Shown: positions 3,173 to 55,812 of the stretch, piece by piece
Numbering within the stretch: the first letter of the stretch is position 1
How the letters are laid out: the number at the start of each line of letters is the position of its first letter
DNA from: a virus
Reading direction: 5' to 3' (one strand)
DNA: 64,000 nucleotides
Virus record (IMG/VR): IMGVR_UViG_3300045988_157201
Translations under genes and position numbers: made by a program
The notes under the pieces: generated by a model
Told to the model about the DNA's origin: nothing
What the model saw: only the letters and a program-made list of their open reading frames with translations
The model's database searches: none

Positions 3173-3745
3173 ATGAACAAACAAATTTTTATTATTAATG
3201 GTTCTGGTGGAGTAGGTAAAGATACATTTTGTAGAATGGTAGAAGAGTCCTTGCCTTTATTTGCGGACAAGTTTGACGGTGTGAGAATTATGCCTGTAAA
3301 AACAATTTCATCAGTAGACCAAATTAAAGAAATTGCAGAATTTGTAGGTTGGAACGCTAAATTTAAAACCGAAAAAGATAGAAAATTCCTATCCGACCTC
3401 AAAGACCTATGTAGTGAGTATAGTGATTTTTCATTTAATTATATGGCTATACAAGTTGAATCATTCAGAGAAAGCAACAGATATGTGTTATTTATACATA
3501 TCAGAGAGCCAAAAGAAATAGAAAGAGCAAAACAGGCGTTTAATGCTAAAACAATCCTTATTAAGCGTGATAATGTAAAACATATTACTTCCAATAAGGC
3601 TGACAGAGAAGTATTTGATTATGACTACGATATTGTAATTAATAATAACGGAAGTAAAGATGAACTTCTTGATGTCGCTGAAGAATTTTGCGAGGACTTA
3701 TTGAATAACACACTTAAAAGTGAATATCAAAGTAAGGAGAATTGA
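3173..3745 (+). CDS. P-loop kinase, dNMP-kinase-like
   Basis: N-terminal Walker A (INGSGGVGKDTF), about 190 aa, strong AAGGAGA RBS. Sits next to ThyX-like and dUTPase genes. Confidence 0.5.
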   Translation: MNKQIFIINGSGGVGKDTFCRMVEESLPLFADKFDGVRIMPVKTISSVDQIKEIAEFVGWNAKFKTEKDRKFLSDLKDLCSEYSDFSFNYMAIQVESFRESNRYVLFIHIREPKEIERAKQAFNAKTILIKRDNVKHITSNKADREVFDYDYDIVINNNGSKDELLDVAEEFCEDLLNNTLKSEYQSKEN

Positions 3746-4426
3746 ATGGGCAAAGTAATTATTTTACCAGAAACAACTAAAAATCCAATTACATTGATTG
3801 GTGAAAGAGCCGGTTATTGTTGGGGTGGTGATGTGTCAAACCCCGAAAAAAATTATAAACGGGGTCTTGATTGCATTAAATCAAACCACGGCAGAACTTT
3901 TGAGTTTGTAAATATTGAAACTGTTATCACAGGTTATTCAGCAAGAGTTATTCGTGAGTGGTACACACATATTGGCGGTAGTCCTACAAGGCTACAAGAA
4001 AGTACAAGATATGTTGATGGTACTAATTTTGATTATGTAATACCACCAAGTATTGCAAGTATTAAATCAAACGAAGCTTTAGAATATTATCATAATGCAA
4101 TGATGACAATAAAAGAAGCTGTCACAAATCTTAAGTTTTGTGGTGTTCCAAAAGAAGATTACGCTATGCTACTTCCTTTAGGTATGAAAACAACTATTGT
4201 TGACAAGAGAAATTTAAGAAATATTGTTGATATGTCAAGACAAAGAGAGTGTAATAGAGCGTATTGGGAATACAGGAATTTATTTGCAGATTACAAAAAG
4301 GAATTATCCAAATATTCTGATGAGTGGAAAACATTGGTTGATTTATTATTTATGCCTAAATGTGAAGTTTTTGGTTATTGTCCAGAAAAGAATAGTTGTG
4401 GCATAAAACCTAAATGCAAAGAGTGA
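3746..4426 (+). CDS. thyX: ThyX-family (flavin-dependent thymidylate synthase-like) protein, divergent signature
   Basis: NHGRTFEFVNIETVITGYSARVIREWYTHIGGSPTRLQESTRY and NLRNIVDMSRQRECNRAYWEYRNL resemble ThyX blocks. The canonical RHR of the ThyX motif reads THI here. Confidence 0.6.
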   Translation: MGKVIILPETTKNPITLIGERAGYCWGGDVSNPEKNYKRGLDCIKSNHGRTFEFVNIETVITGYSARVIREWYTHIGGSPTRLQESTRYVDGTNFDYVIPPSIASIKSNEALEYYHNAMMTIKEAVTNLKFCGVPKEDYAMLLPLGMKTTIVDKRNLRNIVDMSRQRECNRAYWEYRNLFADYKKELSKYSDEWKTLVDLLFMPKCEVFGYCPEKNSCGIKPKCKE

Positions 4427-4456: not shown

Positions 4457-5077
4457 ATAGCAAAAGATTGGACAGGCAATTACAAGAGCGTTTATACAAC
4501 ATTAGGAGCAAGCAATCACACTGATAAAGAACGAGAAGAAAATGATTATTACGCTACCGAACCAAGAGCGACAGAATTATTACTTGAAGTTGAAAAGTTT
4601 TCCCCTGATATTTAGGAATGTGCTTGTGGAAGTGGAGAAATTTCCAAAGTTCTTGAAGATAATGGTTATAATGTAAAATCAACTGATATTGTTTATAGAG
4701 GTTTTGGAGAAGAACAGTCGATTGACTTTCTTAATTCAAAAGAAAATACACATGAAAATACATATGATGGTGATATTATCACCAATCCTCCATTTAAGTA
4801 CGCACTTGAATTTTGTCAGAAAGCATTAAGTATTATATCTAACGGACATAAAGTGGCAATGTTCTTAAAATTGCAGTTCTTAGAAGGTAAGAAAAGAAAA
4901 TCATTCTTCTTGGACAATCCGCCTAAAACTATTTATGTTTCAAGTTCAAGATTGTTGTGTGCTAAGAACGCTGACTTTCAACGAATGAGAGATGGTGGCG
5001 GTAGTGCAGTAGCTTACGCTTGGTATGTGTGGGAAAAGGGATATAAAGGTAATACAGTTATAAAGTGGATAAATTAA
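4457..5077 (+). pseudogene. N6-adenine DNA methyltransferase interrupted by an in-frame TAG, no canonical start
   Basis: One frame reads KDWTGN...YYATEPRATELLLEVEKFSPDI*ECACGSGEIS...DIITNPPFKY...AYAWYVWEKGYKG. TAG at 4613-4615 sits where relatives have Trp (IWEPACG). No ATG/GTG/TTG between the upstream stop (4427) and the conserved N-terminus. ATA at 4457 follows AAAGGGG. Confidence 0.65.
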
Positions 5078-5177
5078 AACGAGGGCTTGAAATGAGAATT
5101 TTAAGACAAGGAAACAAAAGCCAATACAATCCACCTGTATGATATTAATATAAAGAGTAAAGAAAGGAAAGATAAAT

Positions 5178-5531
5178 TTGAAAACTAATTCTTATAGATA
5201 TGTTAAAAAAGCAATACCGATTGAAGCCTTTAAGTACGAAGGTGATTTAAGTGCCAATAGTAAATATTGCGTTCCGAGTTGGGCTATCGAAGCATATGAA
5301 AACGGAATACTTTACTACAAAGAAACAGATGATAGTTCTTCGGAATTATTTGCAAAAACACTTGAGGGTGATATGCTTTGTGAAGTAGGTTGTTATATTA
5401 TACAAGGCGTTGAGGGTGAAATTTACCCGTGTAGAAGTGATATTTTTGATAAGACTTACGAAAAAGTGAAAAACGGTATTTCTTACAAACCTTATACTAA
5501 TGAAGAAGTTGTAGACAATGCGTTTGAGTAA
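5178..5531 (+). CDS. hypothetical protein
   Basis: 117-aa ORF, TTG start 6 nt after AAAGGAAAG. Confidence 0.45.
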   Translation: MKTNSYRYVKKAIPIEAFKYEGDLSANSKYCVPSWAIEAYENGILYYKETDDSSSELFAKTLEGDMLCEVGCYIIQGVEGEIYPCRSDIFDKTYEKVKNGISYKPYTNEEVVDNAFE

Positions 5532-5547
5532 GGAGTCCTAATACATA

Positions 5548-5739
5548 ATGACTTTATCTTTTATAGCAACAATTATTATAACTATTTTGTTTGTCATTAT
5601 AGGTATTAGCCTTGTTGGTTGGCAAATTAAAGAGAAAGCCTTTACAGGTGTAAATCGAGAAACAATACTTATTCTTGATTTATTATATTTTATAGAAGCG
5701 TTTGTTATATTATTAAACGCATATACAAATTTGAGGTGA
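5548..5739 (+). CDS. small membrane protein
   Basis: 63-aa ORF with two hydrophobic helices. GGAG upstream. Confidence 0.4.
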   Translation: MTLSFIATIIITILFVIIGISLVGWQIKEKAFTGVNRETILILDLLYFIEAFVILLNAYTNLR

Positions 5740-5761
5740 TTGTACGGGAATAGGAGAAATA

Positions 5762-6043
5762 ATGCTTTTAATTTTAATAGTTGTCCTTATAGTATTGATG
5801 CTTATAGATTATTTTGCGGACGAAAATAGAAAAAAGAACAGCCACAACAAATATAATAAAAATTTTTCTGAAGAAAAGTATGGATTTACTGTTGTAAGTC
5901 ACAATTCTTTGTTTGAATTCTATGAAGTGTATGATAATGAAACTAAGGTAATGTATGTAATCTCTGACGATTATCACAACGAGGGGTCTATTACTCTTCT
6001 TGTTGACGAAAACGGCAAACCTAAACTATATAAAGAAAATTAA
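5762..6043 (+). CDS. small N-terminally anchored protein
   Basis: 93-aa ORF with N-terminal TM (LLILIVVLIVLMLI). AGGAGA RBS upstream. Confidence 0.4.
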   Translation: MLLILIVVLIVLMLIDYFADENRKKNSHNKYNKNFSEEKYGFTVVSHNSLFEFYEVYDNETKVMYVISDDYHNEGSITLLVDENGKPKLYKEN

Positions 6044-40242: not shown

Positions 40243-40954
40243 TTAATTATTCTCTCTATACTTATAAGAAAAATCATATAATTTCACAATCTGATTATCT
40301 GCATTTGTCTTACATTCTTCAAGTTCAAACATTTTTTCTTGATTATTCCTTATTAAATCGGCAAAATCCATATTCTTATACGAGAACATAGCAGACATAA
40401 TCAATGAAGAATAACTTTTATGTGTAGGTTTTTCGATTAATGAAAGAAGATAAGTTATAGTTTTATGAGAAATTTTAAGTGAATTTATGTATTCAATGCA
40501 ATCTTCTTTAATATTTTCAACCATACCTACACAATCTTTATACGAAAAAGATTCATCGTTCTCACTATCAGTGCTCTTTCGATTTCTATACATTACCCAA
40601 AATGAATTAATTTCATCTTTTGTATCTTGAATTGCCAATAAAATTCTTTCGACCTGTTCATAATACACTTGTCCTTCAATTTCATTAAGAGGCTTAAAAA
40701 TTTCAGAAAAACCTAAATCTTGTTCATTTCTTTTTATACGAGAAACTTTATTTAAAACAAGTTCTATGTAATCCATTGTGGTATGATACAATTGATAAAC
40801 TTTATTATTATTTCCATATCCCTTGTATTGGTCTAAATACTTAAAAAAGAATGGTCGTATATATTTTTTATTATCATCATAAATTGCATATTTGGCTTTT
40901 AGTATATTCAACTCTTTTGTATTATTTGCGGGATTTTCTCGCTTTGCTGAGTCT
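40243..40954 (-). CDS. YonO/RdRP-like single-subunit RNA polymerase, exon 2
   Basis: The frame stays open upstream of the annotated TTG and reads DSAKRENPANNTKELNILKAKY...IRPFFF. It joins exon 1 in frame after removal of the intron at 40955-41309. Confidence 0.6.
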
Positions 40955-41309
40955 CCTTGTGTTCACCAAAGAGCGTTAATCTCTGGCAGTTCTCTTACGA
41001 ACTTCTTGTGCTCACACACAAGAGCAGACTATATCTTCATCCGTTCTGGAGTACACTACTGTTACTCACTTGAGTAAACTTAGTCGTTGGACTTTACCTT
41101 ACGGTCTTAGCTGCTGATTAACAATTATTTATGTACTTAGGATTTAACCATATACCATATTACTGATTTTTTCTACTTTCGTAACTTTCACACTTATGCC
41201 TATGTTCCAAGGCATTATGTTGTAGTTCAGTAATCTTTATGCCGTCCCAGCAATCCAATGTATTTATTATTGTACACATTCCTGTATACCGAGACCTTCT
41301 CTCACAAAA
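40955..41309 (-). ncRNA. group I intron (ORF-less, about 355 nt)
   Basis: Minus-strand RNA carries P (AUUGCUGGGA, 41242-41256), Q (AAUCAGCAGC, 41110-41119), R (GUCCAACGACUAAG, 41079-41091) and S (AAGAUAUAGUCU, 26-37 of 410xx) elements. P4 and P7 pairings are possible. U precedes the 5' splice site, G precedes the 3' splice site, and local GC is higher. Confidence 0.8.
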
Positions 41310-43435
41310 ATCTCTAAATTGCTCATAACATCTAATTGAGCAATGTCAGCATATAACTCCTGCACTATACTTGATTGAATATCATTACCTTGGTAAATTA
41401 ATTCCCAAAGTTTTGAATTTAACTCTTGAGATAAATTTATAATCTCACCAATCTTATTAGTTCCTGTCTTTATATCAAGGTCGGCTTTATCTTCTGGTGT
41501 ATATCTTCTTTTACACTCTGTACTTTCAACTAACTTTGTCGGTACAAGGAAATTATTATAATTCCTCATAGCAGAATCAAATAATATTTTATTATCCGTC
41601 AATAAAATTGTGTCTGAGTCAAAATCACAACCAGATAATTGCTCTAACAGATTATCACCAATACTATTAACACAAACTATTTCATTACTTAAATTGAAAT
41701 ATCTCTCAATATTTTTATTTATTTCATTTTTGCAGCACAAGATATTTCCCATTGTAATATGTGGAGACCTACTACCTAATAAATTTGCACCGTTCTCAAA
41801 CATTTTACAGTGAACCGTTCCACTTTTAATTTCACTTATTCCATTAAATTTTCCGATACAAGACTTTAACATCTCTAAAGGATTTCCAAATAAAGTTGAA
41901 TAATTACCGTGAACTAATATATGACCTTTCCTACAGTTCTTAACAAAAGCCTTAACAGTTTCATTGCGAAATTCTTTATACATTTTTGTTTTGCTAAATT
42001 TACTGTTTAATCCAAGTAGGTAATATACAATATCGTTTTTAGTAACAAGACTTCTACTTTTACTATAATCTGGCATTGAGTATTTTAAATGATACCTAAA
42101 AACCATTTCATTTGTTTTAAGCAAATTGATATATTCAAGTGTAGGCTTTAAAAACTCTTTTACTTCTTTTTCACTCATTTGTAAAGTGTTAAGTAGCTGA
42201 TAATGAGTTTGTACCATCCTACCGTCAAAGTAGTGTGTGGGTTTTTCGTGTTTAACAATTCCAAACTGTGGTTCAATAGTCCATAACCAATCTTCCAATT
42301 TGCCAAATTTTAAGTATTTAATACTGCTTGGAGTGGTAATTAATTTTATTTCAGACAAACTTTTTGCTTGAGTATAACCTTTTAATTGTGATATTTCAGT
42401 AATGTCATTATCCTCAAACCATTTTTGTATATTTGTATTAAAGCAAGCTGATTTAAAAAATCTTGTTCTCAAAAGTAACATACCATAATTTTTATACCGC
42501 TCTCCAAATTTACTTACATCCAACAAAGACTGTCCGTCAAAAATACTGTTTGCCATATTAACTTTTTGAGGAGATGTAGTTAAACGGCAACCTTCATTAA
42601 TTTTTGTCGCCATACAATTAATTGTAAATTTACTTTTATAATCATCAATTACCAATATTTCGTTAGAATAAATGTCAACCGTGTCTATAATTGAAGAAAG
42701 TGTCAAAGCCATATATGGTTCAAGACTTGCCAAATCACAATCGCTACCGTTTTTTATATCCAAACCGCACAAACTCCACTTGTGCATTTTTTTATAAAGT
42801 TTTTCGTCTATAAACAAACACTTTCCAACTCGACTACTTCCACTACTTCTTTTAAAACGAACATATTTAATGCCGTCACACACAAATCCCTCTTTGTACA
42901 ACGATTTGCGAATATCCGATACCGTGTTGAGTGTTTTAAAATTTCCCTTAACCCTATAAACTTTTAATTCGGAATCATAACAAAAATATTTTCCTAACAA
43001 ATCTTGTGACAGGGGAGAGGTCACAAGATAATCAGTAGTAATATCTTTTTCTTTAAAATTTTTTGAAACAGCTTTTATTGCTATAAGTTTACCGTCTTTT
43101 ATACAAACATTATCATTTAACTCAATTTCATATTTGCTATACCCAAACTTGACATACAACCCAAAACCTACATTGTTAAATTCTTTATTGCTATAATCAA
43201 AGGTCATATTAATAATATGCTTGCTGTATTTTTTTTGCCCTATGTATTCAAAAAAGCGTTTATTTCGGTAAACTTCTTTGTGAATGTCTATCATTTTTAT
43301 TAAATCCAAGCTATAATCAAAAGTAGCAAGGAACTTCTTTATATTCAAATCTCCATTTCTGTCTCTTAGTGTATAACCATTCATTTGCTTGTTAATATTG
43401 TGATTGGCTACATACACATCTTTTCCGTCAAGCAA
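41310..43435 (-). CDS. YonO/RdRP-like single-subunit RNA polymerase, exon 1
   Basis: Motifs LRTRFFKSAC, GSRSPHITMGNI, LSGCDFDSDTILLTDN (Asp triad like NADFDGD / DxDGD), then ...AQLDVMSNLEI at the exon end. Start is TTG at 43435, or ATA at 43489, which lies 7 nt after AGGGGTG. Confidence 0.6.
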
Positions 43436-45543: not shown

Positions 45544-46026
45544 TCATTTATTTTCACCCTCCTCAACAGGCTGATTCGTTATTTGTTTCATCAAGTCTCT
45601 TTTCCATCTAATTTTCTTCTCTCTCGGTACACCGTTATCACGACATCTGTTTCCGCTCCATATCACGCCTCCCGCACTTCCTTCGCAGACAAAATTGCTT
45701 GCTCGTAAACTCACACCACTCTCCGATTGCAATGTGTAGGTTATTATCTTTTTATAGCCCATATTTTTTGCAATTCTACAGCACGCACCGTATAGCATAC
45801 TACACCCATTCTTGTATCCATCAAGTACGCAAACCCTGTTAATTTCGCACGTTTCGCCATTATCATAATATCTGCTCACAGGTCTGCCACATACAGCACA
45901 ACCAATTAATTTTGCATTATCATACAACCCAACGCAAAACTTACATCCTACAGTCGCATTATGATGTCTGTGATGTAAATTGATAAAGTTACTTGCTTCT
46001 CTAAATGTCACAGGCTTAATTTCCAT
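45544..46026 (-). CDS. GNAT-fold protein of the XF1762/Mom-like type (possible DNA base modification enzyme)
   Basis: EASNFINLHHRHHNATVGCKFCVGLY ... INRVCVLDGYKNGCSMLYGACCRIAKNMGYKKIITYTLQSESGVSLRASNF matches my recollection of the Mom-related acyltransferase family. Not verified by search. Confidence 0.45.
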   Translation of the reverse strand: MEIKPVTFREASNFINLHHRHHNATVGCKFCVGLYDNAKLIGCAVCGRPVSRYYDNGETCEINRVCVLDGYKNGCSMLYGACCRIAKNMGYKKIITYTLQSESGVSLRASNFVCEGSAGGVIWSGNRCRDNGVPREKKIRWKRDLMKQITNQPVEEGENK

Positions 46027-46112
46027 CACTCTTCACCGCCCTCAATAGGAATATGCTGATTCCAACATTCAACGCAGTTATGACCTTTTCTTGTAATACC
46101 AAACATACGATT

Positions 46113-48374: not shown

Positions 48375-48850
48375 CCCCTTTTACTTCTTTTTTATTTACA
48401 GTAAGCAATTACAATGAATATTTGCTGTTTCTATATGCAGATATTGCAGAAAACTATTTTTTCAAAACCATTTTTTTGTATCACATTTGAATATATTATA
48501 TATAGGCAAGCTCCTTAGCTTAATATATATTAATTTATATAAATAATTAATTAAATATATTAATATAATAGAATAATTATTAATCTGTAAGATTAATAAT
48601 TATTCTTTCTTTGGTTCTTTCTTTATAACTCAAATAAAAAATAAAAAATAATCTCAAAAAAAATAAAAAATATAAAATGAGTCACCGTAAAGTAAATATT
48701 AACTTGTCAAGGAACACAAGAATGTATGCAATGTAATTGTTGAGTTCGCTTTTTACAAAAGCGGAATGAAAAATATTATGGACAACCCTGAAATGGTAAG
48801 TCCATAAAAACAATTCAGTCGTTGTAAAAAACGAAATAAATTACATTTTA

Positions 48851-48879
48851 ATTATACACAACGATACATAAAAAGTCAA
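48851..48879 (-). promoter_or_regulatory. consensus sigma-A promoter (early-left)
   Basis: Minus strand TTGACT (48879-48874), 17-nt spacer, TATAAT (48856-48851). This implies a leader of about 470 nt before 48374. Confidence 0.6.
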
Positions 48880-49410
48880 GAGAAATATTAAAAAAATCTG
48901 AAAAATATTTCCTAAGTGCATTTCCAAAATGCCAAGTTTAATATTTCTAAGTGCCAAAATGGCACTTAAGGTTAGCCAGAAAGAGCATAACAATGTGTTA
49001 TCTGAACATCAGTAGAGAAATAAATGTCAGTATGAAATAAACATACATATGTAATAGAAAAATTTGACCTATAAGACGAGTTTATGAGTTAGGAATGAAA
49101 TTATATTCTTGAAAGATTATAAATGCCTTACAGGTCAAATAAATACATATAAATAGTATATTCACTTATTAGATATGTTTGCCAACAGTAAACCATTATT
49201 GTATTATACCTTTAAACGGCTTAGAATTGACTTGTATTGAGTTTTATGCGTTTATGTATGAATTTATATTAATTACTAAAAAATGCAATACAAGTCAAAT
49301 GAGAGCATTTTAGAGATAAGTGGATTGGTGTAATTGTAGTTTGAGTTAAGTTTTTACCGAAGTTAAAGCGAGGAATTAGTCTATGGCAAGCTACATAAGA
49401 AGTATGGCGT

Positions 49411-49472
49411 TAAATTAATTATTTTTGATTATTCGTCAGCAAGCTGTCTCATAATCAAAAATAATTAATTTA
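49411..49472. repeat. 22-bp perfect inverted repeat with 18-nt loop
   Basis: TAAATTAATTATTTTTGATTAT (49411-49432) and ATAATCAAAAATAATTAATTTA (49451-49472). Confidence 0.85.
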
Positions 49473-49794
49473 ACTTTGGCGTACCCAAAATTCGCAAAGC
49501 TCATTTTGTTTACGCTGACAAAAAAAGATATTGAGATTTCTGTTTTAGGGGAGTGAGTTTATGGGTGTAAATCAGGAATATAAAAATAGCCTGCTAATTT
49601 ATAGCAGACTTGAGTTAATGTGGCTATTGAATTGTAGGGGTTTATTATTCTGATGTTTTTGTTTATGCAATATTATTTTAAGTAAATATTACTTTAAGTA
49701 AATTTATTAAAGTAAAATATGATATTTTATACAGTCAGTAATATAATGAATTATTTAAAACGAAAACGATAATAGGTTTTTCAGTTCACCGAAA

Positions 49795-50105
49795 GGTGTT
49801 TTGGGAATATGAGTGTAAGTTTTAAGTTGGATAAGTGTGTAAATATGGGATAAATCCTATATTTTTGTAAGGTTTAAGGTATTGAATTTGAGATTGTATT
49901 AATGAACAGGAATTTGAGGTATTTGTGGTTTAGGTCATTTTGGCTATTTTTGAGGTAGTTTGAATGGATTTGGATAGTGTTGTGTTAGGGTGATAAATGG
50001 CTATTTTATGCGGCTTTTAGGTAATAGGTGTGGGGATTGAGATATGGGTGTTTTTGGTATGAAATGAGGGTTTAGGTGGTTAAAAGGTGGTTAAAAAAAT
50101 AGGGC
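49795..50105 (+). other. C-depleted G/T-rich tract
   Basis: Hand count for 49801-50100: about 90 G versus 8 C. Degenerate GGTTTAGGT-like motifs recur. Confidence 0.85.
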
Positions 50106-50464
50106 TGAAAACGATTTTTATGGGTTCGATTCGGTGGATGAGTTCGATGGTCTTTTTAGAACTACTACGCCCTTTGTTTCAGATTAGAAGGGTTGCCAAA
50201 ATGTAAAATACCCCCCCTATGTTAGTTAGTGGTAGGTAGTAGGTAGGGCGTTGAATTATGCGGTATATCGGGGCGTGTTTTAGTGATATTTAACTTTGCA
50301 AAAACGGCTTGAATACTGTATTTTTTGAAGTTTTACGAGAAATAAAAGAGCCGGCAAAAGTCCGCAAAAGTGCAAAAAGCGGACATTTGAAAAAATGGGC
50401 AAAGATCAAGGATTACAAGATATACAGTTATATATTTACTGTTTTTGTAGTATTTTGCGGCAAA

Positions 50465-50504
50465 ATAGGGCAAGGATAAAATCTGAATAGGGCAAGGATA
50501 AAAT
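50465..50504. repeat. direct repeat (iteron-like) ATAGGGCAAGGATAAAAT x2
   Basis: Exact 18-mers at 50465-50482 and 50487-50504 (22-bp period). Confidence 0.85.
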
Positions 50505-50590
50505 TTAACAAAAAATCATTGAAAAGCGGGTGAAAAAGCGGTAAAAATTGTATTATTCAGCTAAAATTAATAATCGTTCTCATTTTGAGA

Positions 50591-50719
50591 CTTTGTTAAA
50601 ATTTTAACAAAGTTGTTCGATATCAAACAATTAACATTCTAACTATATTGTTAAAAGTTTAACAAACTTCAATCATATAAAAATAGTTCGATATCAAACT
50701 AAATCGTTAAACTTTTAAC
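50591..50719. repeat. alternating palindrome / 14-mer cluster
   Basis: 22-bp perfect palindrome CTTTGTTAAAATTTTAACAAAG (50591-50612). Related TTGTTAAAAGTTTAACAA (50648-50665) and GTTAAACTTTTAAC (50706-50719). Exact GTTCGATATCAAAC at 50615-50628 and 50686-50699. Confidence 0.85.
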
Positions 50720-51059
50720 AATATATCCGGCTGTACGCTCATATACTCATTTACGCTTTTACGCTCACGCTCATATATCAATAATCATTCAGTAATCAGC
50801 TAATCAACGTTCATTCAATCAGCTTTAATCATTACAATATATTAATTGCATTCTTGTAACACTTATTACAATTACACTTATTACAACTGCATAGCTGCAC
50901 TTGCATCAATCTACCCACCCACGCAAAAATGCCTTTTAAATGGCTTATAACGGTTCAAACAGTCAAGTAATATAATTACTCTAATAGACTATAAAAACGC
51001 TTGTAGGGCTATTTAAAAGGCTTATATAAAGTATATAAGGATAGACAAGTAAAAGTGCA

Positions 51060-51275
51060 TCAATCAATCACACCATCTCGCTTTAGGCAAGCGTAAAAAT
51101 ACTGCGTTGCTGTCTGATTATGACTGTTTAAGTAATTATCTATCTTGTCAATGTCAGTTAATTTTATGCAAATAGTGCGATTTTTATATGTTTTCGCTTG
51201 ATATTTTGCACTTGCACGCAACTGTGCAGCTGTACTTTTTTTAATTTTTGGTTGTATATTATTATTAATAGTCAT
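51060..51275 (-). CDS. small basic DNA-binding-type protein (ribbon-helix-helix-like?)
   Basis: 71 aa. The N-terminal KKSTAAQLRASAKYQAKTYK then RTICIKL (beta-strand) then helices. The only minus-strand gene right of the ORF-free region. Confidence 0.35.
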   Translation of the reverse strand: MTINNNIQPKIKKSTAAQLRASAKYQAKTYKNRTICIKLTDIDKIDNYLNSHNQTATQYFYACLKRDGVID

Positions 51276-51311
51276 AATTAATCATTTCTTGTATAATATA
51301 TATAAAAATAA

Positions 51312-51376
51312 TATAAATATTAGTGATATGTTTTTGCAAAATTACACTTGTAAAGTATAAATATTAGTGATATAAT
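51312..51376 (+). promoter_or_regulatory. rightward promoter(s) with an 18-bp direct repeat
   Basis: TTGTAA (51348-51353), 17 nt, extended -10 TGATATAAT (51368-51376). Alternative: TTGCAA (51334-51339), 16 nt, TATAAA. TATAAATATTAGTGATAT repeated at 51312-51329 and 51356-51373. Confidence 0.5.
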
Positions 51377-51935
51377 AGTGTCAACGAAAAGAGATAAAGA
51401 AACAAAAAAACAAATACATAATATCTCATATCGTTATTGTAGAAATTCAATTGTTACAACTCACAACACAAATATTTTAAACATTTTAATTGTGTTGCGT
51501 AAATCAAAAAATGTTCGTACCTTGAAAACTGAATGAACTTGCAACAGTCTTGAGCCTGCACACATCTATACATTAGTATAGTAGTAGTGCCTCTAAAGTC
51601 CTTAGACGAAGTATGTCAAAATTCGCATAAAGAAAAATAGCAATAAAAAATGTACTATTGAATGTATGCGACCGGCGATATATTGAACCTTTGAGCTTTA
51701 AGCCCTCAATGAAGATAGCTATTACTATGCCGTCAATGGGTGAAGTGCACCCTTCAAGCTGTTGATACTCAAGTCAAACCTTTATTTTTGATTTTAATTA
51801 TTTTAACTTTTTAGGCGATTGCACAAAACAGTAATAATAATTATAGCGTTTATTTTGTGTAAATTGCATAATTTAAAAAGCTGATTTTGTGCAATCTATA
51901 AAGAGTTAAAATACTCTTAATGTGTAATTTCCATA

Positions 51936-51964
51936 ATTATACATTAAATACATAAAAAAGTCAA
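51936..51964 (-). promoter_or_regulatory. consensus sigma-A promoter (leftward, faces the rightward promoter)
   Basis: Minus strand TTGACT (51964-51959), 17-nt spacer, TATAAT (51941-51936). Confidence 0.55.
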
Positions 51965-51991
51965 GAAAAAATTTAAAAGGAGTAAATAAAA

Positions 51992-52252
51992 ATGACAAAA
52001 GAGGCTATATATAAAAGATATAAGAATCAAAAGCCAGTGGGGACTGTATGTTTTAGTAATACTTTTGGGCTTCAGGTTTACGAGCCTGACGAAAACGATA
52101 AATACGATTGTGATTATATATGCAGTTGGTACAGCGGCGAGAGAGAGTGTGGATTCCATAAGCATATGGTGCACTACTCAACTTCGGGTAGGGCTTTTAT
52201 TAGAAAAGGCTCTTTAAGAATCTATCTGGATGAAGTCATGAGAACTGCATAA
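51992..52252 (+). CDS. hypothetical early protein
   Basis: 86-aa ORF with AAAGGAG RBS. Confidence 0.5.
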   Translation: MTKEAIYKRYKNQKPVGTVCFSNTFGLQVYEPDENDKYDCDYICSWYSGERECGFHKHMVHYSTSGRAFIRKGSLRIYLDEVMRTA

Positions 52253-52278
52253 AAAGTCGTTGCGGCGACTAAAAAAAG

Positions 52279-52328
52279 ACCGTTAGGATGCAAGCGTTCC
52301 GCCCATTGTGGGCGGAGGTCGGGAAACC
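52279..52328 (+). promoter_or_regulatory. GC-rich conserved stem-loop element, copy 1
   Basis: Stem TTCCGCCC (52297-52304) / GGGCGGAG (52310-52317), loop ATTGT. Homologous to 54696-54748, including the flanks. Confidence 0.6.
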
Positions 52329-52372
52329 GAAAAATCAAAAAAATCAAAAAACAAATAAAGGAGTTAATACAT

Positions 52373-52732
52373 ATGATGACATTAGCAAAATTAACAGAAT
52401 TAGTAAATCATTGTGTAAACGCAAAAATTGAGATTGAAGAAATTAGTGCTGATACAAAAATTGAGTTTGAAGTGGAAAGCGACTTTGATGTAGAAACGCT
52501 CAGCGGCGGTTATTACTTCGATGATTTAACAGAAGCATATAGCTATTTAAAAGAATCGCTTGATATACAAACTGACCCTGAAGCGCTTGAGTGCGACGAT
52601 GCTCCCGCAAAAATCAACGGTGTAGGCTTGTATTTACATTTTAATTCAGATGATATAGAAACGATTTGCATTGCATATTACAGCCGCAAAAGTGATACTG
52701 AATTTTATGACAGACTTATTGCGATGTTTTGA
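52373..52732 (+). CDS. hypothetical acidic early protein
   Basis: 119-aa ORF with AAAGGAG RBS. Confidence 0.5.
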   Translation: MMTLAKLTELVNHCVNAKIEIEEISADTKIEFEVESDFDVETLSGGYYFDDLTEAYSYLKESLDIQTDPEALECDDAPAKINGVGLYLHFNSDDIETICIAYYSRKSDTEFYDRLIAMF

Positions 52733-54649: not shown

Positions 54650-54695
54650 AACTATAATATAGAGCCGTCAAAGCCGTCAAGCCGGCTATAAACAG

Positions 54696-54748
54696 TCCAT
54701 TAAGGCTTGAGCGTTCGCCTGCCATTGTGGTGGGCGAGGTTGGAAACA
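54696..54748 (+). promoter_or_regulatory. GC-rich conserved stem-loop element, copy 2
   Basis: Stem TTCGCCTGCC (54714-54723) / GGTGGGCGAG (54729-54738), loop ATTGT. Two extra stem positions relative to copy 1 are G-U/U-G pairs. Confidence 0.6.
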
Positions 54749-54804: not shown

Positions 54805-55812
54805 ATGGATGAATGCACATTAAATAAATTTGAAAATATTGAAATTAAAAACGATACAAGAATTGCAAAAGATGACCTTGCATTTTGTGAATCTAATCAA
54901 AGATTATATCTTAAAGTTCTCAAAAATTATCAAAATATTTATAGCAACTTGCTAAAGGTACTGCAAAAAGAACAATCACAATTTGAAGAAATTGAGATGG
55001 AAAATACTTTTACTAAAAACGGATATTCTTATAAAAAATACGATTATCATTTTTTATCAATAAATAAAGAAGATTTTGCAGAAATAAGATCTGGAGTTCA
55101 CAAAATTTTTATCACAACTATTGTTGATTATTTTATTGAAAAATACGGTGTAGAATTAAATGTAAAATCTGTTGACGAAATACTCGGAATTGAAAAGCCA
55201 AAGCAAGTTGATGGTAATTATTGGGGCTATCGCAACCTAACCAATGAAGAAATTGATAAAATCAAAGAAAGAAACAGAGAATATGAAAAATCTATGGATA
55301 AATACAGAGATAAAGTTATTACAGCAAAAATTGATTTTAATACTATCATTGATGATATTTTCGTCCAATTAGACGGATATTCTTTTGTTGACAAAGTTAA
55401 GAAAGAAATCATTGCTTCTTGCAAGTCTGCTTGTTTTAATCAATATAGAAAATATGGTTATGTTGAATTAAAAAAGAATAAAATTTCAATCGAAACAGGT
55501 TTTGATAGTCATTTTAGTAGTATATGGAAAGAATATGAAGCAAGCACAGATAATTCAGCATTTAGGGCAATAATGAGAGCCTTATCATTCTTTGATAGCG
55601 GAGAAAATAACATTTCCATTTATGATAGCTGGTATTACTCATTCATTTATTACAATAAAAAAGAAATAGATGGTATTTACGGCTTGCATTCCGCATACGG
55701 AAATAAGGTTGAATCATTCAAATTTTATAAAAACGGAAAGTGGGAAATAAAGTTTATTTCAGAGGAAGAAGCACAGAAATTCTTTGATATGTACTGCAAA
55801 TTGGAGGCTTAA
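54805..55812 (+). CDS. hypothetical protein, paralog A
   Basis: 335 aa. The N-terminus (LNKFENIEIKNDTRIAKDDLAFC) and C-terminus (FYKNGKWEIKFISEEEAQKFF) align with the next gene product. Confidence 0.55.
   Translation: MDECTLNKFENIEIKNDTRIAKDDLAFCESNQRLYLKVLKNYQNIYSNLLKVLQKEQSQFEEIEMENTFTKNGYSYKKYDYHFLSINKEDFAEIRSGVHKIFITTIVDYFIEKYGVELNVKSVDEILGIEKPKQVDGNYWGYRNLTNEEIDKIKERNREYEKSMDKYRDKVITAKIDFNTIIDDIFVQLDGYSFVDKVKKEIIASCKSACFNQYRKYGYVELKKNKISIETGFDSHFSSIWKEYEASTDNSAFRAIMRALSFFDSGENNISIYDSWYYSFIYYNKKEIDGIYGLHSAYGNKVESFKFYKNGKWEIKFISEEEAQKFFDMYCKLEA

Follow-up and report, generated by a model that had tools for sequence, protein, structure and literature searches.

A predicted group I intron without an open reading frame interrupts the codon of an invariant residue in a YonO-like phage RNA polymerase gene

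It is textbook knowledge that conserved motifs of essential phage genes can harbour group I introns. Here we report a segment of the IMG/VR virus record IMGVR_UViG_3300045988_157201 (the window, a stretch of 64,000 nt) that is very probably an intron of this kind. It occupies positions 41309..40955 on the minus strand, is probably of a phage/Firmicute IA-like type, contains no open reading frame (ORF) and lies in phase 2 of the codon for the invariant residue Ile709 of a gene for a YonO-like RNA polymerase. The intron and its splice sites had been proposed in a first-pass annotation made from the letters of the sequence, and the analysis supports that interpretation to the nucleotide.

The locus consists of a 722-aa ORF (43435..41267, minus strand) followed, after a gap, by a 222-aa ORF (40911..40243, minus strand). 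The gap had been described as GC-richer than its surroundings, and the segment 41309..40955 indeed has a G + C content of 37.5%, as against 29.5% in exon 1 and 26.3% in exon 2. All three parts of the gene lie on the minus strand: exon 1 (41310..43435) comprises 708 codons plus 2 nt and carries R556-x-P558 and D604xD606xD608; the intron (40955..41309; 355 nt) starts with UUUUGUG and ends with ACAAGG, with its terminal G at 40955; and exon 2 (40243..40954) comprises 1 nt, 236 codons and the stop codon. Read-through from exon 1 continues for 14 codons into the intron before it reaches a stop, as had been stated (722 aa versus 708 full exon codons), and the proposed splice restores the frame, since joining 41310 to 40954 creates a single open frame of 945 codons that reads ...SNLEIDSAKRENP... 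The earlier claim that the intron lacks a homing endonuclease gene also holds, as there is no ORF of sufficient length inside it; a free-standing endonuclease gene was found neither near the polymerase gene nor in the window, where a phmmer search gave no HNH-like ORF. Exon 2 begins with A/GAC UCA GCA AAG, which encodes D710-S-A712-K713. A TGA (40965-40963) closes its frame 9 nt ahead of the junction, and the first in-frame start codon, TTG 40911, is 14 codons past the junction and beyond the invariant motif; exon 2 as a gene of its own would necessarily lose the motif.

The junction was compared with intron-less homologs, and the comparison confirmed it. Excision joins ...QLDVMSNLEI/DSAKRENP..., and QLDVMSNLEIDSAKRENPANN is contiguous through the junction, without insertion or deletion, in 26 of the 26 uninterrupted homologs that were aligned. 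Alignments A1 and A2, one of which includes an SPbeta-type protein, show no variation at I709, D710, A712 and K713, which form an invariant I-D-x-A-K motif about 100 residues after DxDxD; the first-pass annotation had called the interrupted motif AVDxxK-like. The profile phrog_8308 is matched at positions 23-639 by the first ORF alone and at positions 23-799, unbroken, by the spliced product. This product also has more than 3000 uninterrupted relatives with lengths of 900-1060 aa, among them P0001 (98% identity). A single uninterrupted match was found at 78 of the 80 viral loci encoding relatives, which contradicts the notion that the two ORFs are always separate genes. The closest comparison is provided by six genomes that are 97.7-98% identical to the window over many kb and lack exactly these 355 nt, namely the contigs L001 and L002, which encode P0001, and the IMG/VR contigs L006-L009.

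The exact splice sites follow from the termini. The 5' exon ends with GAGAU (41314-41310), the guide GUCUC lies at 41295-41291, and the terminal G is at 40955. Two registers give Ile, AT/A and ATT/, and the ATT/GAC register would end in A; because only AT/A combines a U·G pair at the 5' splice site with a terminal G, the first-pass coordinates were kept, in which the U of the exon wobble-pairs with the guide (U41310·G41295) and the intron ends with G 40955. The ligated exons are thus predicted to read ...AAUUUAGAGAU/AGACUCAGCAAAG... The context of the junction is TTA GAG AT/A GAC in intron-bearing genes and CTC GAA ATT GAC in all intron-less alleles of about 98% identity, which amounts to four synonymous differences inside 9 nt, against a divergence of about 2% in the rest of the gene (intron-less site AATCTCGAAATTGACTCAGCA; variant TTAGAGATAGAC). 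The change from GAA to GAG removes an A·C mismatch in P1 and thereby completes this helix.

The group I identity of the segment was assessed with the Rfam model RF00028, as the first-pass annotation had envisaged. A local scan of positions 40800-41450 (651 nt) yielded a full-length match (model positions 1-253) at 41295..41005 on the minus strand with 38.8 bits and an E-value of 2.3e-8. The four core elements P, Q, R and S that had been recognised by eye are present on the minus strand as AUUGCUGGGA, AAUCAGCAGC, GUCCAACGACUAAG and AAGAUAUAGUCU, and the alignment to the model places them in P4, P4', P7 and P7'; the P9-like hairpin CUUGUG...CACAAG is likewise present and is P9. The same alignment contains P2, P3, P6, P8 and P9, and it shows P5 extended by an insertion of about 120 nt and, between P7 and P3', a hairpin of 20 nt. 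The minimum free energy (MFE) fold of the segment has a z-score of -3.4, and 0 of 100 shuffled sequences fold as well. In blastn searches, the segment was 70-75% identical over 50-80% of the intron to phage sites, with matches in about 140 records of Staphylococcus, Enterococcus, Bacillus, Listeria and Clostridium phages, among them Clostridium phage D-1873, in which the matching site is annotated as 'Group I catalytic intron'.

Comparative support comes from alignment A3, which comprises the window intron and its nine closest relatives (ten phage introns). A degenerate core pattern had recovered 120 related introns from viral contigs, of which L177 and L171 are the two closest ORF-less ones and at none of whose loci (0 of 120) a relative of the polymerase is encoded; an exact 29-mer search of viral contigs returned only the contig already known. 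When no structure was given, RNAalifold recovered P2, P3, P4, P5, P5a, P5b, P6, P8 and P9 from A3, with compensatory changes in 45 of 72 pairs. With the P7 pseudoknot added, 95.4% of the cells of the alignment pair, compared with 32-40% in controls, and 45 pairs have changes on both sides, compared with 4-15 in slid controls, in which the pairing partners were displaced by 1-3 columns; none of 500 shuffles reached any of the observed pairing measures. A member of the same intron family in a polymerase homolog (L278a; nhmmer E 7e-57 to the A3 profile) scores 96.1 bits with RF00028, above the Rfam threshold.

Guide and exon also covary at four other insertions of the intron family, all in homologs of the polymerase gene. 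In the window, exon GAGAU faces guide GUCUC at residues 709/710, and the corresponding sequences are UUGAGAU and GUCUCAA at the same site in L237, AUUGAU and GUCAGU 4 nt downstream in L273, CGGUU and GACCG at 562/563 in L278a, and GAGAU and GUCUC at 665/666 in L278c.

Helix by helix, the intron has the following structure, with all elements on the minus strand. P1 (41291..41314) is formed by exon GAGAU (41314-41310) and guide GUCUC (41295-41291), with U41310·G41295 at the 5' splice site, and intron nucleotides U1-U4 (41309-41306) can pair with G11-G14 (41299-41296). P2 (41272..41289) is a hairpin of GUAUACA and UGUGUAC with a GGAA loop and changes on both sides in six of seven pairs. The 5' strand of P3, UACAUU (41257..41262), pairs with 41057-41052; it was found by RNAalifold without prior structure, with compensatory changes in four of six pairs, and the 3' strand, AGUGUA (41052..41057), is supported by RNAalifold and covariation. 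The P4-P5 domain (41112..41252), supported by RNAalifold and by pair counts, begins with the invariant helix P4 (UGCUGG, 41252-41247; UCAGCA, 41117-41112) and continues with P5 (41242-41240/41123-41121), P5a (41234-41227/41166-41159; eight of eight pairs compensatory) and P5b, which consists of two hairpins, one of them GAAA-looped (41184-41173). A further hairpin of this domain contains UAUGG (41152-41148) and CCUAAG (41141-41136), which match the 11-nt GAAA-tetraloop receptor and are a putative receptor of this kind. P6/P6a (41091..41111) consists of GCU...AGU around ACC-GUAA-GGU and is present in the RF00028 alignment, in the RNAalifold structure and in the covariation.

The 5' strand of P7, GACUA (41081..41085; part of R), pairs with 41031-41027 to form a pseudoknot with P3, and all five pairs are invariant among nine distinct sequences. 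Between P7 and P3' lies a P7.1-like hairpin, UUACUC-AAGU-GAGUAA (41062..41077), which is an insertion relative to RF00028 and is present in the MFE fold, with partial covariation. P8 (41040..41050; UCC-AGAAC-GGA) is contained in the RF00028 alignment, and the P8 helix of the family is 81% paired; J8/7 and the 3' strand of P7, GAAGAUA UAGUC (41027..41038; element S), are invariant in A3. P9 (41022-41005; CUUGUGU-GUGA-GCACAAG) has compensatory changes in six of seven pairs. P9.1 (41002-40989) and P9.2 (40986-40966) are supported by the MFE fold and by visible covariation in A3 columns 400-440, so that P9, P9.1 and P9.2 are all present in the window intron.

Several observations weigh against the identification as a functional group I intron. 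The RF00028 score of 38.8 bits is below the Rfam gathering score of 50, which is an annotation cut-off and not a biological property, and the model is absent from both whole-window scans (one at the gathering threshold, one at E <= 0.01), which returned only two Pistol ribozymes; these scans miss the match because of their speed filters and the gathering threshold. The P7 helix is invariant, so that covariation offers no support for it, and as neither P4 nor P7 varies, it is the model match that supports both. By inspection, the 3' exon offers at best a weak P10 pairing. There is a single hairpin (41077-41062) between P7 and P3', and class IA2 has been described with two, P7.1 and P7.2, together with an extended P9 domain (P9.0/9.1/9.2; PMC4227781). 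In comparison with intron-bearing and intron-less relatives, exon 2 has 8-9 synonymous and 9-10 nonsynonymous differences; the corresponding values for exon 1 are 27-31 and 4-6 against intron-less alleles and 16 and 3 against the intron-bearing contig L010. The pattern in exon 2 probably reflects a less constrained C-terminal domain, and some relaxation of constraint on exon 2 may contribute. Finally, we infer splicing, self-splicing without protein and the exact point of ligation.

Three other explanations were weighed against these data. Should the segment be the decayed remnant of an intron that no longer splices, the polymerase would be a pseudogene or a truncated protein of 722 aa. The RF00028 score under the gathering threshold, the higher nonsynonymous fraction in exon 2 than in exon 1, and the absence of an endonuclease gene, a point of the homing cycle where decay of introns is to be expected, would all fit this explanation. 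Yet every core helix is intact and the core covaries, the three substitutions among intron haplotypes are structure-neutral, and two backbones with 39 differences in their exons carry the intron without any change. Moreover, exon 2 is open and of full length in three intron-bearing haplotypes, with D710, A712 and K713 intact, and the change from GAA to GAG improves P1. We consider decay improbable.

The chance is slimmer still for an IStron without an ORF, in which case a group I intron would have arrived by transposition and stayed behind after excision of an IS200/IS605/IS607 transposase module (IS, insertion sequence). ORF-less IStrons have been documented, and in the phage collection the best matches lie in Clostridium phages D-1873 and c-st, where an OrfB/TnpB transposase comes after the group I intron; these are elements of the CbISt3/CbISt4 type (PMC4227781). 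These C. botulinum phage elements (CbISt3/CbISt4 of c-st and D-1873) are the closest full-length match to the window intron in that collection, with 71% identity over intron positions 45-324. Group A IStrons follow TTGAT, ATTAT or TTTAT and end with TCAG. In group B, the insertion site ends in GG, the last base of the exon is G instead of U, the 3' terminus reads CGG, and inverted repeats form a long AU-rich stem (PMC4227781). The termini of the window intron fit neither group: it follows GAGAU, with the canonical U·G pair, and ends with AAGG, in contrast to the G-ending exon and CGG end of CbISt3/CbISt4. It contains no ORF, no IS module and no long AU-rich inverted-repeat stem; P9.1 and P9.2 are ordinary hairpins that covary with those of its ORF-less relatives, and the ORF-bearing relatives in the polymerase gene family encode HNH endonucleases and no transposases. 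Least probable of all is a truly split polymerase, in which products of 722 aa and about 222 aa assemble and the structured RNA is an intergenic element: there are two callable ORFs and split enzymes do occur in other phages, as in the multi-subunit RNA polymerases of jumbo phages (PMC2919709), but the break lies inside the codon of an invariant residue, the frame of exon 2 is closed just before the junction, a start at TTG 40911 would lose D710-A712-K713, and the gene is uninterrupted both at 78 of the 80 viral loci and in the genomes of about 98% identity.

If the segment is a group I intron, the chemistry of this class of introns suggests the following course of splicing. The guide GUCUC would pair with the last five exon bases, GAGAU, in the pre-mRNA and form P1 with its U·G wobble. 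From its binding site in P7, an external guanosine would attack after U41310, and the terminal G40955 would then take the same site, upon which the exons would be ligated to ...GAG AUA GAC... and encode the 945-aa polymerase. Unspliced RNA would give only the 722-aa product, which lacks D710, A712, K713 and the C-terminal 236 residues. Since this product is truncated, the full-length polymerase, and presumably late transcription by analogy with YonO, would depend on splicing. A protein cofactor may be needed, and splicing may be partial or regulated.

The host gene was identified by structure prediction, because direct searches of sequence families gave nothing: a Pfam search with the spliced protein yielded no match, and neither the protein nor a profile gave a meaningful match among PDB sequences. 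The AlphaFold2 model of the spliced protein (predicted local distance difference test 77.9; predicted template-modelling score 0.72) matches the fold of Arabidopsis RDR2 and of Neurospora/Thielavia QDE-1 with E-values of 3.5e-13 to 1e-10 over 800-900 columns and a template-modelling score of about 0.43, and also that of the phage P32 gp64 RNA polymerase (8f72; E 3.6e-5). The residues D604, D606 and D608 of the DxDxD triad and R556 and P558 of R-x-P are invariant in the alignments, and these positions correspond to residues common to all two-barrel polymerases (PMC2919709). Matches at the sequence level are weak: phrog_4291, 'RNA-dependent RNA polymerase', has an E-value of 8e-4, as does an 835-aa protein of SPbetaL8 (Spbetavirus) that is annotated as hypothetical (tblastn, 21.6% identity), and PF05183 (RNA-dependent RNA polymerase, RdRP) was found in 3 of 16 members of the family, the window protein not being among them. 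According to the model, the 945-aa protein is a single-chain two-barrel RNA polymerase of the YonO/QDE-1 type with predicted activity.

Immediately downstream of the polymerase gene, and on the same strand, come a metallophosphatase gene, an ORF of 611 aa and a long series of large ORFs. We presume, from its sequence and not from a family library, that the 611-aa ORF encodes the large terminase. YonO has a role in late transcription (PMC5467207); by analogy, the window polymerase may have the same role, with which the position of its gene is compatible.

Other features were observed elsewhere in the window. A 161-aa ORF on the minus strand (45544-46029) matches the Mom family (PF25680, E 1e-10) and, weakly and under the family cut-off, GNAT (PF00583, E 0.0013), which suggests a DNA-modification function in the phage. 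The region 48375-52372, about 4 kb without an ORF of at least 90 aa, is situated where the genes change from the minus to the plus strand and extends up to the first of two Pistol ribozymes (RF02679; gathering score 34.5). These ribozymes are located on the plus strand at 52255-52323 (62.4 bits), just upstream of the ORF 52373..52732 (+), and at 54672-54744 (57.3 bits), just upstream of the ORF 54805..55812 (+).

Four human-gut contigs of 94-101 kb (L010, L207, L208 and L209) carry the intron at the identical junction, which brings the intron-bearing records, with the window, to five; they represent three haplotypes. The three substitutions that distinguish these haplotypes are located in a loop, in a pair that changes from A-U to G·U, and in a junction of the RNA structure. 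The window (42532..40791, minus strand) and L209 share an identical block of 1.74 kb that extends from -1223 to +164 around the intron; outside this block the gene differs at 39 positions, and the backbones are 2-3% apart. Such a block is compatible with co-conversion in the course of intron transfer or with ordinary recombination into a mosaic. The window intron would be a derivative or passenger of the HNH-encoding version that occupies the same nucleotide in L237; it probably spread among co-infecting relatives by recombination, with co-conversion of the flanking exon, and an HNH endonuclease like that of L237 may have helped this spread in trans or in the past.

Polymerase relatives in the genomes and metagenome-assembled genomes of Clostridia (prophages) are interrupted at several conserved points, so that the gene family has four sites: that of the window (709/710) and three further ones, one of them directly before DxDxD. 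At the same nucleotide as in the window, the distant homolog L237 carries an intron of the same family of 1140 nt that is split by an HNH_3 ORF (Pfam E 5.7e-10; RF00028 31.6 bits), and L273 has an ORF-less intron of 570 nt (nhmmer E 1e-72 to the A3 profile) located 4 nt downstream. Three group I introns interrupt a single polymerase homolog, L278 (JAZUGJ010000187.1): L278a (3645-3938; 294 nt) at 562/563; L278b (4059-4321; 263 nt; RF00028 58.7 bits) in the codon for Cys603, 2 nt ahead of the codon for the first catalytic Asp; and L278c (4532-5822; 1291 nt; RF00028 42.3 bits), with an HNH_3 ORF, at 665/666. The DxDxD site, at residue 604/605, is also interrupted by inserts of about 340-370 nt in L272 (3771-4110), L279 (3762-4106) and L280 (3798-4169), which are related to L278b by blastn, and by inserts of about 1060 nt with NUMOD4 and HNH_3 ORFs in L281 (3786-4848) and L284 (3774-4830); all five inserts are related to one another and to L278b. 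The short inserts gave no RF00028 match in a pooled scan, and that of L279 scored 19 bits locally (E 0.014); likeness to L278b and the NUMOD4-HNH ORFs of the long versions mark the DxDxD-site inserts as putative introns. A candidate in L046 (5280-5518), a 55%-identical homolog whose match is about 400 nt longer than in L017 and L018, was rejected, as the flanks are in the same frame; the extra stretch is probably an in-frame insertion in the protein.

The window has GAGAT at its own 665 site and no intron there. That the same intron family, with the same guide GUCUC, follows GAGAU at 665/666 in L278 and at 709/710 in the window and L237 suggests guide-directed switching between sites. This two-site pattern, together with the retuned guide of L273 only 4 nt away, is as expected from guide-directed reverse splicing and not from endonuclease homing. 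A wider idea, that the YonO-like genes of gut Clostridia phages form a hot spot in which one intron family moves between sites and genomes, is tentative and seems to us rather unlikely; if it were true, the efficiency of splicing could set the timing of the late programme, for which the polymerase is presumably needed.

Among the closest known systems are the IA introns of Firmicute phages (Staphylococcus Twort/K-like, Bacillus SPO1/Bastille, SPbeta bnrdE/F), with which the window intron shares the P1-P9 architecture, the P7.1-type insert, P9.1 and P9.2, the location in a conserved motif of an essential phage gene, and the presence or absence between near-identical genomes. It differs from them in its host, a YonO-like polymerase, in the lack of an endonuclease ORF and in the one hairpin between P7 and P3'. 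Group I introns in phage RNA polymerase genes have precedents: in the Pseudomonas phage PhiPA3, an intron with the HNH endonuclease gp210 interrupts a multi-subunit RNA polymerase gene (PMC11620839), and in phage 201phi2-1 a mobile intron splits gp273/274 (PMC2919709). Like these, the window intron is a group I intron in a conserved region of a gene for a phage two-barrel RNA polymerase, and HNH-bearing relatives occur in the window gene family too (L237, L278c, L281, L284). Unlike the window intron, those of PhiPA3 and 201phi2-1 reside in genes for beta/beta'-like subunits of the multi-subunit enzymes of jumbo phages with Gram-negative hosts, whereas the window has an ORF-less copy in the gene for a single-chain YonO/RdRP-like enzyme of a gut phage of about 100 kb with prophage relatives in Clostridia. 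In crAss-like Zeta phages, polymerase ORFs are fragmented even within DxDxD (PMC10136315). The window protein shares the DxDxD triad, R-x-P and the single chain with both barrels with YonO of SPbeta (PMC5467207) and with QDE-1/RDR2, although it is only about 22% identical to the SPbeta-type protein; as a further shared feature, its gene lies just upstream of the putative packaging and structural genes on the same strand.

No report of an intron in a YonO-like single-chain polymerase was found in the searchable literature, which omits most subscription journals, and the statement of the first-pass annotation that none was known in a YonO-type gene thus agrees with the literature searched. The surprise is smaller because introns in multi-subunit RNA polymerase genes of phages are already known, and the basic understanding of group I introns is unchanged. 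What is new is that the essential phage genes which host group I introns now include those of the YonO/RdRP-like single-chain two-barrel polymerases, and the colonisation of this gene family at multiple sites is the most interesting part. The insertion points coincide with the most conserved positions, directly before DxDxD and inside I-D-x-A-K; as introns mark functionally critical residues, they flag I-D-x-A-K in YonO-type enzymes.

The finding also matters for annotation, where gene callers yield two 'hypothetical proteins' and Rfam defaults miss the intron: its recognition restores a 945-aa polymerase, and other interrupted homologs would gain in the same way. Intron-bearing and intron-less genes, ORF-less and HNH-bearing copies, and introns at the same site, at a site shifted by 4 nt and at a distant site with the same 5-nt target together form a natural comparison set, which is useful for understanding how introns without an endonuclease persist and move.

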